From Solobacterium sp. (lineage in GTDB: Bacteria; Bacillota_I; Bacilli_A; Erysipelotrichales; Erysipelotrichaceae), in contig JAKVJO010000001.1 in the NCBI GenBank assembly GCA_022486935.1, forward strand, positions 4,820 to 68,819: a DNA stretch of 64,000 nucleotides. Direction: 5' to 3'. Shown piece by piece: positions 7,310 to 31,274 of the stretch. Under the pieces are notes generated by a model that had not been told where the DNA came from, did not search any database, and saw only the letters and a list, made by a program, of their open reading frames with translations. Each line of letters begins with the position of its first letter. Position 1 is the first letter of the stretch. The position numbers and the translations under genes were made by a program.

Positions 7310-7338
7310 TTGACACCTTATTCATGCCGAGGTACACT
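7310..7338 (+). promoter_or_regulatory. Sigma-A promoter of the rpsP operon
   Basis: TTGACA (7310-7315), 17 bp spacer, TACACT (7333-7338). The -35 lies inside an 11-bp inverted repeat (7292-7317). Confidence 0.8.
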
Positions 7339-7366
7339 CTTACCTGTAAACAGGAGGATTCATACT

Positions 7367-7651
7367 ATGGCAGTCAAACTGAGATTAACAAGAATGGGAG
7401 CTAAGAAGGCTCCGAGATACCGTATCGTTGCAGCAGATTCCCGCTTTGCAAGAGACGGACGCATCATCGAAGTTGTCGGATCATTCAACCCGACCACTGA
7501 GCCGGAGACCGTTACCGTTGATGAGGAAAAGGTCATGAAGTGGCTCAACTGCGGCGCTCAGCCATCTGATACCGTTCGTAACATTCTTTCCCGTCAGGGC
7601 ATCATGAAGAAGTTCAACGATGCCAAGAATGCCGGAAAAGAAAAGAAGTAA
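7367..7651 (+). CDS. rpsP: 30S ribosomal protein S16
   Basis: [43 protein letters not shown]. Confidence 0.97.
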
Positions 7652-7657
7652 TCAATC

Positions 7658-7912
7658 ATGGAAGCACTCGATCAGGTATTGCTGAATCTGGTCAAGCCCA
7701 TGGTCAATGAACCGGACAGCCTGTCCGTATCGGTATCTGAAAATGATGAGAATGGTGACGATGTCGTTCTTCACGTTCACGCAAAGAGCGAAGACATTGC
7801 CAGGCTGATCGGCAGAAGAGGCATGATGGCTTCCGCACTCCGTCAGGTGATGGGAATCGCTTCCCACTCTGAAGACAAGCGGATCGCAATCAAGTTTGAA
7901 CAGATTGACTGA
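7658..7912 (+). CDS. khpA: KH-domain RNA-binding protein
   Basis: DIARLIGRRG KH loop. Conserved position between rpsP and rimM. Confidence 0.88.
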   Translation: MEALDQVLLNLVKPMVNEPDSLSVSVSENDENGDDVVLHVHAKSEDIARLIGRRGMMASALRQVMGIASHSEDKRIAIKFEQID

Positions 7913-7940
7913 GGATGCGGAATCACGCATCCTTTTCTTT
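7912..7940 (+). terminator. Intrinsic terminator-like hairpin after khpA
   Basis: AGGATGCG / CGCATCCT stem followed by TTTCTTT. Confidence 0.65.
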
Positions 7941-7955
7941 CCAGGAGGCAGAACA

Positions 7956-8465
7956 ATGGGATATATCCAGATCGGCACTATTATCAATACCCATGGCTTA
8001 AAAGGAGAGCTGAAGATCAGAAGCAGTTCTGATTTTGATGATCTCCGCTATCAGACAGGCAATACCGTATACCTCTACCAGAATGGCAGCTATCTGCCGG
8101 TGAAGGTGGCATCGTTCCGGGTACATAAGGGATATTCCCTGGTGTCCTTTGAAGGCATGCAGGATATCAATCTGGCCGAGCAGTATAAGAACAGTCTGGT
8201 ATGTATTCAGGATACCGATCGTCATGAACTTGAAGACGGTGAATACTACATCGATGAACTGAACGGCATGAAGGTTCAGGATGAGGCAGGCAATGAGATC
8301 GGCACTGTGATTGCAGTTGAGCCGACTGCCGGTGCCCAGAACAATCTGCGGGTAAAGAAAACTGCCGGCGGCACTGCACTGATTCCCAACGTCGATGAAT
8401 TCGTCAAAGAGATTGATGAAGAACAACGCGTCATTACGATTCACGTGGAGGAGGGGCTGCTGTGA
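7956..8465 (+). CDS. rimM: Ribosome maturation factor RimM
   Basis: IGTIINTHGLKGELK, EDGEYYIDEL, LIPNVDEFVKEID. AGGAGG RBS. Confidence 0.95.
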   Translation: MGYIQIGTIINTHGLKGELKIRSSSDFDDLRYQTGNTVYLYQNGSYLPVKVASFRVHKGYSLVSFEGMQDINLAEQYKNSLVCIQDTDRHELEDGEYYIDELNGMKVQDEAGNEIGTVIAVEPTAGAQNNLRVKKTAGGTALIPNVDEFVKEIDEEQRVITIHVEEGLL

Positions 8466-9196
8466 GAATTACCATCCTGACACTGTTTCCGGAAATGTTT
8501 GACGGCTTTCTTTCCACCTCGATCATTGCCAGGGCGATTTCCCGCGGACTGGTTACGGTGGATTTTGTAAACTACCGTGATTTTGCCCATGATACCTACC
8601 GTCATGTGGATGATTCACCGTTTGGCGGCGGCGCAGGCATGGTCATGAAATGCCAGCCGGTGCTGGATGCACTGAATTCCGTGAAGACAGAGAACTGTCA
8701 TATCATTCTGCTGACTCCGACCGGAACACAGTACGGACAGGCCATGGCACACAATTATGCAGCGTATGATCATCTGATTATTCTCTGCGGGCATTATGAA
8801 GGCATGGATGCCAGAATTTATTCCCATGTCGATGAACTGGTCTCAATCGGAGATTATGTACTGACCGGCGGCGAACTTGCCAGCATGGTCATCGCAGATT
8901 CCGTGATCCGTCTTCTGCATGGGTCCATCAAAGAAGATTCCGCAAATGATGAATCCTATGAGAACGGACTGCTGGAGTATCCGCAGTATACCCAGCCGGC
9001 AGATTACGAAGGGGACAAAGTGCCTGAAGTGCTGCTCTCAGGCGATCATGAGAAGGTACGCAAGTGGCGGCTGAAAGAGTCATTGAAGCTGACCAGGACA
9101 AAGCGCCCGGATCTCTTTGCCCGGCATCAGTTGAATAAAGAAGAACAGAAGCTCGTCTATCAGATTGAGGATGAAGAGGCAGATAATAAACAGTAA
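8462..9196 (+). CDS. trmD: tRNA (guanine-N1)-methyltransferase
   Basis: GTG start overlapping rimM stop. VDDSPFGGGAGMV, CGHYEG, SIGDYVLTGGE, LLEYPQYT. Confidence 0.97.
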   Translation: MRITILTLFPEMFDGFLSTSIIARAISRGLVTVDFVNYRDFAHDTYRHVDDSPFGGGAGMVMKCQPVLDALNSVKTENCHIILLTPTGTQYGQAMAHNYAAYDHLIILCGHYEGMDARIYSHVDELVSIGDYVLTGGELASMVIADSVIRLLHGSIKEDSANDESYENGLLEYPQYTQPADYEGDKVPEVLLSGDHEKVRKWRLKESLKLTRTKRPDLFARHQLNKEEQKLVYQIEDEEADNKQ

Positions 9197-9223
9197 TGCA
9201 TGTTATCTGAATTGTGGGATGCG

Positions 9224-9289
9224 TTCACACGATTCTTCACCTAAACTTCAGATTGTATTCATATTCTTTTAAGAGAGCAATCGTATCCT
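9224..9289 (+). promoter_or_regulatory. Activator-dependent promoter with OmpR-type direct repeats
   Basis: TTCAC 9224, TTCAC 9236, TTCAG 9247, TTCAT 9258, TTAAG 9269 (11-12 bp period), then 10 bp, then -10 TATCCT (9284-9289). No canonical -35. Confidence 0.55.
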
Positions 9290-9294
9290 TGTAA

Positions 9295-9432
9295 CTGTAA
9301 ACAAGGAGGCCGATGCAAGCTGAAAAACAAATCAGCAGTGTGTAACGCAATTTGCAAACTAAATTATCTTTCCCCCCTAAAAAAAGATAATGATTCAAAT
9401 GAAGCCTCCGATCCCCTCGGAGGTTTTATTAT
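9295..9432 (+). ncRNA. Candidate small regulatory RNA with two C-rich hairpin loops
   Basis: Hairpin ATTATCTTT-[CCCCCCTAAAA]-AAAGATAAT (9363-9391) and terminator AAGCCTCCGA-[TCCCC]-TCGGAGGTTT plus T-rich tail (9402-9432). No convincing ORF. The 5' end is estimated from the -10. Confidence 0.55.
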
Positions 9433-9584
9433 TTCTGCCGTTCAAATCGGCTGTCATTCTGTTGAAATATCGCATCAGAAACGGGTATTTCACGATTCCT
9501 GTATAGCAGAATAGCGATTTGTGAATTATACTCATTGAAACAAAGCTGCAGTATGAACTACATTATTGAGACAGAGGGCCAAAG

Positions 9585-10427
9585 ATGAAAGGAAGAAATC
9601 CAAAGAAGGGATTCACACTTGCCGAACTGCTGATCACAGTGGCAATTATTGCCGTGCTTGTGGCTGTCAGTATTCCGATTTTTACATCGCAGTTGAAAAA
9701 ATCGAGAGCTGCAGCCTGCAGTGCAAACAGACGATCGCTGAAATCTCTTTTATCTGCGCAATACCTGAGCGGTGAATTGACTGCAGCTGATATCACAAAG
9801 GAATTGATTTCACTGAACAGCAAGAATGGGTATCAATACGAAGATCAAACTTTCAGCTGTCCTGATGGCGGAACAATTTATGCGCAGATCAATGATCAAT
9901 CCATCGCGGTCAGATGTACTTATCATGATGATAAACAGCAGGATGAAGTGATCAATGATACCTGGACAGCTGATACAGCACAGCAGATATGGAACATTCT
10001 GAGTGATTCCGAACGGGAATTTGGCAACGCGGATTCGTTTGGAAGCGGCGGCGGACAGAATACAATCAAACTGAACACAGCACTGGATGCTGCGGGGATC
10101 AATCTGAACGATCTGGGTGCCGTCAGCTGGCATTATCAGGATGGCAGCAATTTCGTGTGGACAACAGCAGATATCTCGAAAAAGAAGGCAGGCGACACTG
10201 TGATCATGATGAAATATAACTTGAGTGGTGATTATGCAGGCGTCTATTCCGTCTGGGAAGCAACCGTCAAATCAGTCACCAGTGACAGGGGGATCACCTA
10301 CAATATCATTTCAGCAGATACTGCAAAAACAGAAAAAACAAAATCGATGAGCAGGGATGACAAAAAAGATATCAGAAAGGTCATCGCCGAATACAATCGA
10401 TATGCCGAAATCAAACTGAAACAGTAG
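9585..10427 (+). CDS. Type IV pilin-like protein with class III signal peptide, PilJ-like
   Basis: KKG|FTLAELLITVAIIAVLVAVSIP prepilin motif with E5. Mature C36, C83, C102 and H105. Confidence 0.88.
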   Translation: MKGRNPKKGFTLAELLITVAIIAVLVAVSIPIFTSQLKKSRAAACSANRRSLKSLLSAQYLSGELTAADITKELISLNSKNGYQYEDQTFSCPDGGTIYAQINDQSIAVRCTYHDDKQQDEVINDTWTADTAQQIWNILSDSEREFGNADSFGSGGGQNTIKLNTALDAAGINLNDLGAVSWHYQDGSNFVWTTADISKKKAGDTVIMMKYNLSGDYAGVYSVWEATVKSVTSDRGITYNIISADTAKTEKTKSMSRDDKKDIRKVIAEYNRYAEIKLKQ

Positions 10428-10529: not shown

Positions 10530-10817
10530 TCACTGAACCCGGTGTGTCCTGATCACATAGCGGATCAGTTTGATAAAGCCATATCCGACACCCCAGTAGA
10601 CAACCAGAAGCAGGATCGGAAGATTCTCTGCATTCTGGTGGAACAGGGACAGCAGCAGTACAACGATCGCTACAGAGAGTACAAGATCGATGGCTTCTGA
10701 TTTGAAGTCTGCGAAGAACGCAGAATCATTCGCTGCTTTTTCTGAATCGGCGGAGTGACCGTAGACAGGATTCATCATGGTTTCCTGATCATTGTTATTC
10801 CATTCATCTGATGTCAT
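10530..10817 (-). CDS. Small hypothetical membrane protein (2 TM)
   Basis: GGAGG upstream of ATG 10817 (MTSDEWNN). Two hydrophobic helices at the C-terminus. Confidence 0.65.
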   Translation of the reverse strand: MTSDEWNNNDQETMMNPVYGHSADSEKAANDSAFFADFKSEAIDLVLSVAIVVLLLSLFHQNAENLPILLLVVYWGVGYGFIKLIRYVIRTHRVQ

Positions 10818-10974
10818 CTGATAAATCGCCTCCATTTGTATGACTTGATGGAAATGATTGATGGAATGATTGCAGGGGACAGAAATCGATTCAACGTCAT
10901 TATTATTTGTCCGCCGGGCATAATAATCAAGTCTGCATGCATGGAATCATACTAAGTTTCATGATTTCAACACA

Positions 10975-30472: not shown

Positions 30473-30566
30473 GGGCGCTTTTTATATCTTAATGTTTTCT
30501 TAAAAGTTCTCCGTCTGTTTTCTTAAACAGCGGATCAGTAGAATAAAAGTGCAGGGGGAATCTTAA

Positions 30567-31274
30567 ATGTCTTGTGTATTGATCGTGGATGACGACAGTG
30601 ATATCGTCGAAGCTTTGAAAATCTATCTATCTTCAGAGGGACTGGAGCTGCTTTCGGCATCAACCGGAAAACAGGCACTGGATGCCGTCAGTGAACATCA
30701 GGTAGATCTTGTGCTGATGGATATCATGATGCCGGAAATGGATGGCATTACAGCCGTTGCCAAACTTCGGGCGGCAAATGCCAATATGCCGATCATCCTG
30801 CTGACTGCCAAGAGTGAAGATTCCGACAAACTGCTGGGATTGAATATCGGGGCAGATGACTACATCACCAAGCCGTTCAATCCGGCTGAAGTGGTTGCCA
30901 GAGTGCGTTCCCAGCTGCGCAGATATACCCGGTTCGGCTCCCAGGTGCAGAATGAAGAATCCAAACATCTGAGGATCGGCGGCATCTCGCTGAATGATTC
31001 CAGCAAGACGGTCACCGTGGATGAAGCACCGGTGTCATTGACGCCGATGGAATACGGAATCCTGAAGATGCTGATGGAGCATCCGGGAAAGGTATTCTCT
31101 TCAGAAGAAATCTACCGGGAAGTATGGAAGGGCGATCCGATTGCCAATGACGGCGTGGTCGCAGTCCATATCCGGCATTTAAGGGAAAAGATTGAAATTA
31201 CCCCGTCAGAGCCAAGATATCTGAAAGTGGTCTGGGGCCAGGGGTACAAGATGGAGGATTCAAATGGACGATAA
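30567..31274 (+). CDS. OmpR/PhoB family response regulator
   Basis: VDDD, DIMMPEMDG, GADDYITKPF, winged helix VAVHIRHLREKIE...VWGQGYK. Confidence 0.95.
   Translation: MSCVLIVDDDSDIVEALKIYLSSEGLELLSASTGKQALDAVSEHQVDLVLMDIMMPEMDGITAVAKLRAANANMPIILLTAKSEDSDKLLGLNIGADDYITKPFNPAEVVARVRSQLRRYTRFGSQVQNEESKHLRIGGISLNDSSKTVTVDEAPVSLTPMEYGILKMLMEHPGKVFSSEEIYREVWKGDPIANDGVVAVHIRHLREKIEITPSEPRYLKVVWGQGYKMEDSNGR

Follow-up and report, generated by a model that had tools for sequence, protein, structure and literature searches.

Introduction

The LhrC RNAs of Listeria monocytogenes, a comparison to which PMC6305404 leads, are LisRK-dependent, multicopy, and partly tandem, measure 105-121 nt, and carry UCCC sites in a loop, in a single strand, and in the terminator loop; their targets include lapB, oppA, tcsA, and other surface proteins (accessible portions of PMC4132741 and PMC8079631). 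The csRNAs (Ccn RNAs) of the streptococcal CiaRH system occur in several copies behind direct repeats placed 10 bp before the -10 element, span 51-202 nt, and form two stem-loops with an unpaired stretch complementary to the Shine-Dalgarno (SD) sequence and the start codon; CiaR requires NTTAAG-N5-TTTAAG, each half of which ends in an invariant G (accessible portion of PMC3091779). RoxS/RsaE, which belongs to ResDE in Bacillus and SrrAB in Staphylococcus, pairs with SD sequences through C-rich regions and has ResD-type activation (PMC4409812, in its accessible portion). Finally, the STAB-SD of cry3A mRNA is an SD-like 5' motif, lacking a reading frame, that holds the 30S subunit against RNase J1 (PMC4113751, likewise in part).

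Here, we analyze a putative small RNA within a window, that is, the whole stretch of 64,000 nucleotides of Solobacterium sp. DNA under study. In our main reading, to which we assign a probability of roughly two in three, the locus is one of three or four copies of a promoter-plus-terminator unit predicted to yield a stand-alone small RNA under ResD-like control, whose seed would block G-rich ribosome-binding sites (RBSs). By analogy, the RNA family likely works like Listeria LhrC or the streptococcal csRNAs, and by membership tests it falls outside csRNA, LhrC, and RsaE/RoxS. LhrC is the best functional match, being multicopy, with C-rich loops, two-component control, and surface-protein targets, of which regulation and targets are predictions for the family described here. 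The two differ in promoter motif and regulator type, in the host (Hfq was found in none of five genomes searched here), and in the number of UCCC sites, which is three in LhrC compared with two in the window subtype and one in most members.

The short members of the family share the exact csRNA layout, and the unpaired anti-SD/anti-start stretch is present in 56 of 65 units. However, the repeat is TTCAC rather than TTTAAG, the seed is UUUCCCCC, and the CiaR helix VVEVYVSKVRKKL occurs in none of the seven OmpR proteins of the own genome, which is 62% complete, nor among the helices parsed in eight relatives, many of whose helices were unparsable. The csRNA nonamer (A/C)UCCUAAA(A/C) is matched at eight of nine letters in the window (9374-9382) and is not kept in the closest relative, G016, or in the family consensus. 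With RoxS/RsaE, the family shares C-rich anti-SD stretches, and its candidate regulator bears the label ResD from JGI, but it is multicopy, the partner kinase gives no PAS match, and the predicted regulon comprises envelope genes, not respiration. As for STAB-SD, the known cases are mRNA leaders, whereas the putative counterpart here would lie in a non-coding RNA. A search of Rfam for a known family, proposed in the original prediction, came back empty: the window had no match at the gathering score and ten weak ones up to E 10, all far under the cut-off, and the units in 19 family loci had none at the gathering score, the four matches being tRNAs and an L10 leader elsewhere. LhrC (searched to E 10), csRNAs, and RoxS/RsaE were all without a match.

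Promoter and predicted RNA unit

Upstream of the unit, the boxes TTCAC (9224), TTCAC (9236), TTCAG (9247), TTCAT (9258), and TTAAG (9269) succeed one another at periods of 12, 11, 11, and 11 bp, and TTTAAG (9268-9273) is followed, after a 10-bp gap, by the -10 element TATCCT (9284..9289, + strand), which is identical in G016. This arrangement of five boxes at 11-12 bp, with TTTAAG 10 bp before TATCCT and the -35 element absent, is as the original prediction described it, and a sigma-70 scan returned no -35/-10 pair at the promoter. Its likening to CiaR promoters did not hold, however: there is a single TTTAAG only, the first half-site at CiaR spacing is ATTCAT (9257-9262), not NTTAAG, and the family motif consists of TTCAC repeats, of which TTTAAG is a local variant.

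Specifically, the core direct repeat TTCAC-N6-TTCAG (9236..9251, +), at -48 and -37 from the -10 element, is where an OmpR-family activator likely binds, as predicted from box positions, a promoter matrix, comparison with G016, and a logo of 67 family promoters. An extra TTCAC (9224..9228, +) lies 12 bp ahead of it, with a similarly placed box in the paralogue on contig 16 and in the metagenomic member L117, and two degenerate promoter-proximal boxes, TTCAT and TTAAGA (9258..9274, +), occupy the usual place of a -35 element. The logo gives these two the consensus nnCAT and WWCACA, with C in 49 and G in 11 of the 67 promoters at the fifth place of the last box; C at -24 (66 of 67) and A at -12 and -10 (64 of 67) are positions outside the search pattern. 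The box-plus--10 matrix, built from three promoters (two from the own genome, one from G016) and a few hand-added last-box variants, recovered ten sites of at least 20 bits in the own genome versus none in the reversed genome; since two of the ten are training sites, at most eight are independent. Because G016 keeps the boxes while the spacers change, and because changes in the terminator are compensatory, the arrangement seen in the window is more than chance.

The predicted small RNA (9296..9432, +; about 135 nt, probably starting at 9296-9297) is supported by folds, paralogues, and family units, and the folding energy of 9296-9432 is -35.3 kcal/mol (z -4.8), matched by none of 200 shuffles. 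A seed hairpin (9363..9391, +), identified by its fold and by family comparison, presents UAUCUUUCCCCCCUA (9365-9379) and leaves the C-run at 9372-9377 unpaired; its loop, CCCCCCUAAAA, has an unpaired probability of 0.98-1.0. An intrinsic terminator (9398..9432, +), supported by covariation, bears the loop UCCCC (9412-9416), which is fully unpaired in the fold of 9398-9430. A unit of this length with both a C6 hairpin and a UCCCC terminator had been proposed from the start, and both loops are indeed exposed. Near the 5' end lies the SD-like motif AAGGAGG (9303..9309, +), with no conserved start codon, which by analogy with STAB-SD is a possible 5' stabilizer or shield.

Copies, spread, and anatomy of the family

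The genome-wide paralogue search suggested at the outset yielded two or three further copies behind the same promoter, among them a second copy of the window hairpin on contig 16. Four of the ten matrix sites lead into short terminator-ended units, on contigs 1, 16, and 4 and, more divergent, on contig 14. The short-type copy on contig 4 (L191, 72 nt; G000:C4:2858-2929) precedes a presumed mntP-like gene and a TetR-like gene; the contig-16 copy (L161, 130 nt; G000:C16:17542-17672), which has no terminator C-loop, is divergent from an FMN/FAD lipoprotein gene; and the divergent, CU-rich copy on contig 14 (L160; G000:C14:1025-1125) precedes a tex-like gene. The six other sites (G000 C17:4584(-), C21:25420(+), C4:43989(-), C18:4229(-), C32:15216(+), and C52:9556(-)) lead into proteins, not RNA units. 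The genes behind these boxes are a VTC-DUF4956-Cthe_2159 operon, a GT2-GtrA glycosyltransferase with a phosphodiester glycosidase (NAGPA), an arylsulfotransferase, a BD-FAE esterase, and two lipoproteins without a Pfam match.

Beyond this genome, the family pattern TTCAS-N6-TTCA-N33-TANNNT-gap-TTYCCCCC occurred with a short gap in 30 and with a long gap in 31 of 116 genomes of the genus (55 in union), and its reverse in none. An order-wide draw placed it in 24 of 301 genomes, including 17 of 44 in the genus and seven in four other genera of the same family; in the other large family, 0 of 64 genomes had it. Among five genomes negative for the strict pattern, a promoter-only pattern found nine promoters, six leading into CU-rich terminator units and three into proteins. 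Further, a promoter-free covariance model covering the 3' half gave six matches beyond its two training copies, four of them behind boxes; of the others, L208 is false, and L209 has the 5' motif behind a degenerate promoter. Flanking genes differ widely among copies and include convergent ones, and tandem promoter-plus-RNA pairs occur in G101, G087, G081, and G054 (loci L206, L198, L210/L224, and L481), like the lhrC1-4 array. Other search designs were set aside: the exact hairpin, used as a pattern, captured too little, matching 2 of 116 genomes and, on metagenomes, giving one true member (L117) among 117 matches checked by eye, and a pattern lacking the boxes was not specific, its controls in ten genomes matching about as often. 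In a genome of the other family (G026), one locus (L385:16313) shows the same box geometry followed by a short hairpin and a U-tract, with no C-run.

We took 65 distinct units of 59-161 nt, many of them from close kin and thus not independent. A strict terminator, which is not part of the search pattern, is present in 57 of these versus a shuffle mean of 1.1, and all 11 of its base pairs show changes on both sides in a model-fitted alignment of 20 distinct rows. In the same alignment, the stem around the C-loop is kept poorly in register (63% paired), although the C-run is exposed, so what is conserved is exposure of the seed rather than one stem. Consensus folding of 19 short members recovered the terminator alone; their layout is a hairpin, single-stranded AUUUCUUUCCCCCUAU, and the terminator. 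The window subtype begins UGUAAAC(AG)AAGGAG, and the 5' ends of the 65 units carry a hairpin alone (34), AGGAG alone (16), both (5), or neither (10). The hairpin C-loop of the original prediction has counterparts across the family, but its second anti-SD loop, in the terminator, is kept in just 14 of the 21 copies of the subtype, of which eight are sister copies; over all units the count is about 21 of 65 after removal of three rows in which the main C-run had been scored.

Solobacterium, Bulleidia, and their relatives are common oral, gut, and rumen anaerobes. The literature that we searched describes no regulatory small RNA for them, and large screens may list members among their candidate RNAs. 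The Bulleidia genome paper gives RNase P and SRP as its sole non-coding RNAs in the accessible part (PMC12786226), and the accessible text of PMC11109978 names the bacterial family for another motif only. These units form a real, likely uncatalogued multicopy family of predicted small RNAs.

Candidate regulator

The own genome encodes seven OmpR proteins, one of which, on contig 29 (helix RTLDTHIKLLRKNL), is preceded by TTCAC-N6-TTCAC-N10-TAATAT. Across 66 regulator loci examined in relatives, and among the matches listed, TTCAS-N6-TWCAC stands before 10 of 14 orthologues of this gene (in seven of eight and three of six genomes) and before none of 52 other regulator loci (0 of 47 and 0 of 5); one of the four orthologues without boxes, again among the matches listed, belongs to a genome that carries three copies of the RNA. 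Three genomes of the RNA-lacking family contained no orthologue at E 1e-62. The label ResD is the one that JGI gives to orthologues, and searches of NCBIfam and the PDB gave no closer name. ResE and SrrB kinases carry a PAS domain; the partner kinase here matches HisKA and HATPase domains only. From these sequence patterns, the ResD-labelled contig-29 regulator likely controls the family promoters, its binding being predicted. Cultured carriers of the regulator include Stecheria intestinalis and Anaerolactibacter massiliensis, and by its homologous proteins the own genome belongs among Solobacterium, Stecheria, and Anaerolactibacter.

Two-component control had been proposed from the outset and remains likely in kind, but the contig-29 protein is favored over the regulator encoded at 30567, which has CTTAA-type rather than TTCAC repeats upstream. 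These CTTAA repeats, with a -10 element TAGAAT, lie at about 30488-30544 (+) of the window, before the VanR-like 30567 gene, and recur before its contig-2 paralogue and three of four close orthologues; they are likely a separate autoregulatory motif. The contig-29 regulator pair (G000:C29:4844-8468) sits between what we take, from sequence features, to be an Mrp/NBP35-like ATPase gene and a rubrerythrin-like gene, a redox-flavored neighborhood. In G102, a ferredoxin-like gene is under the control of one box promoter (L486).

Predicted targets

The seed is complementary to ribosome sites of the GGGGGAAAG type. We scanned 1428 start regions, 54 of them lipoprotein-like, from genes called with a crude home-made caller. 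Of the 40 best-ranked regions, 10 belong to lipoproteins with the window seed and 11 with the short seed, against 1.5 expected (a sevenfold excess) and against one for a generic anti-SD. The excess persisted when only the stretch ahead of the start codon was used and among Met-Lys-starting genes; far-upstream and coding control windows gave 0-2, and 0 and 1 of 150 shuffled seeds reached it. The top predicted targets are FMN/FAD lipoproteins, a phosphonate-binding protein, and solute-binding proteins (SBPs) of families 1, 3, and 5, with OppA and sugar-binding proteins among the lipoproteins. Of the genes named in the original prediction, the response regulator reached rank 46 of 1428, GH1 rank 64, and oppB only rank 190, and brnQ did not appear. 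All pair far less well than oppA, which starts 111 bases left of the window and whose predicted duplex of 12 bp has an energy of -19.8 kcal/mol.

Of 20 homologous start regions taken, 4 were unparsable and 6 of the 16 parsed, 3 of which have a doubtful start, rank in the top 5%. In 400-kb samples, the lipoprotein excess came to 2/17, 1/17, and 3/16 in three genomes of the genus and to 3/17 and 3/18 in two genomes of the RNA-lacking family. Since a weaker excess also appears without the RNA family, co-evolution is not supported, and G-rich sites on lipoprotein genes are in part a general trait. Even so, lipoprotein mRNAs are the likeliest predicted targets.

Alternative explanations

The strongest rival, which we consider improbable though worth weighing, keeps the stand-alone RNA and changes its regulator or its job, making it a C-loop sponge for G-rich RNAs or for a protein, or a protein or ribosome decoy through AAGGAGG. 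The assembly leaves room for another regulator, which could be missing because the genome is 62% complete, and the boxes alternate between TTCAC and TTCAG; against this, only the contig-29 type carries boxes among the 66 regulator loci in relatives (matches listed). A different job would fit the lipoprotein bias in genomes without the family and the retention of the 5' AGGAG without a reading frame in 21 of 65 units, but the seed fits an SD plus spacer, and 46 of 65 units (a raw count) have YAU 4-12 nt ahead of the C-run. A decoy for CsrA was rejected, as no CsrA was found in the incomplete own genome.

A stand-alone RNA is also favored over a cis-acting leader or attenuator, a reading raised in the original prediction for the pilin gene, in which the 5' GGAGGC (9305-9310) would pair with GCCTCC (9404-9409) in the first arm of the terminator and let transcription read into the downstream gene. 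In a transcript ending at 9415, this helix has a probability of 0.99, and G016 has the matching pair GGAGGT/ACCTCT; moreover, the gene immediately downstream is LD-carboxypeptidase-like for many copies of the window subtype and mntP-like for many short copies, both names being assigned from sequence features. In the full RNA, however, forcing the helix costs 6.8 kcal/mol and its probability is 0; among the 21 AGGAG copies, nascent pairing exceeds 0.5 in only five and full-length pairing in none, so the pairing is not conserved, and 44 of the 65 units lack AGGAG altogether. The pilin-like gene with its N-methyl motif (9585..10427, +), which lies outside the element, is absent behind the G016 copy, where the next gene is convergent, and downstream genes vary widely across the family. 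Attenuation is accordingly unlikely, and strongly so.

Slightly less probable still is that the window copy is a displaced or silent remnant, serving only as the terminator of the trmD operon or yielding an RNA released from the operon 3' end. No terminator was found between the stop codon of trmD (8462..9196, +) and the unit, whose own terminator therefore probably also ends the rpsP-KH-rimM-trmD operon. In assembled metatranscriptome contigs from two runs of one study, one contig (depth 6.9) covers 9107-9376, extending from trmD into the unit and fitting trmD read-through or DNA equally well, none covers 9377-9792, and none covers the contig-16 copy; these contigs weigh neither for nor against expression of the RNA. 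The position next to trmD is found only in the own genome (G000) and in G016, among the trmD loci listed, and the intergenic part, sought at the DNA level in 41 genomes, turned up in that one relative, at 70% identity. Yet G016 keeps all boxes and the -10 element while the spacers drift, and the promoter ranks second in the genome by the matrix, a partly circular measure. That the unit is a tiny mRNA, with AAGGAGG starting a 10-residue frame at ATG 9313, is the least credible reading: SD and ATG are both there, but only 3 nt apart, the ATG is ATA in G016, and any start codon follows AGGAG in only 5 of 21 copies, with unrelated peptides.

Proposed circuit and its setting

Returning to the small RNA under ResD-like control, we propose that the contig-29 regulator would bind the TTCAC repeats and activate the -35-less RNA promoters, its own promoter, and about six envelope operons (glycosyltransferase-GtrA with phosphodiester glycosidase; VTC-DUF4956-Cthe_2159; arylsulfotransferase; esterase; and two other lipoproteins). 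The RNA would end at its own terminator, with its 5' end shielded by a hairpin or, in the window subtype, by a ribosome-binding motif lacking a start codon. The seed would nucleate on GGRGGGAAAG-type sites without Hfq, and pairing would shut down mRNAs, above all those of solute-binding and flavin-reductase lipoproteins. The net effect would be a simultaneous rise of envelope-remodelling genes and a cut in the bulk synthesis of surface lipoproteins.

The predicted circuit is complete in its parts, comprising an RNA family, a promoter motif, a regulator, co-regulated genes, and ranked targets. Beside csRNA, LhrC, and RoxS, it would add another independent two-component case with redundant C-rich RNAs, in an Hfq-less Firmicute, and would bear on why such RNAs are multicopy and how an anti-SD seed becomes selective. 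More speculative, and in our view rather doubtful as a whole, is the idea that this is a fourth independently evolved two-component system with multicopy C-rich small RNAs in Firmicutes, using a shared G-rich RBS code to throttle the synthesis of the whole class of surface solute-binding and flavin-reductase lipoproteins, with an SD decoy replacing the 5' hairpin in one subtype. If true, a single RNA of the AAGGAGG subtype would carry both an SD and an anti-SD.

The neighborhood of the window copy has features of its own. In the rpsP-KH-rimM-trmD operon (window 7310-9196), rplS is not the next gene, and relative to G016, the pilin-like gene (9585-10427) seems inserted between the RNA and a small convergent gene (10530-10835). 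Several paralogous pilin starts occur in the own and related genomes, and a second trmD of about 55% identity (G000:C6:18185, L037) is present in the own genome, as in several relatives.
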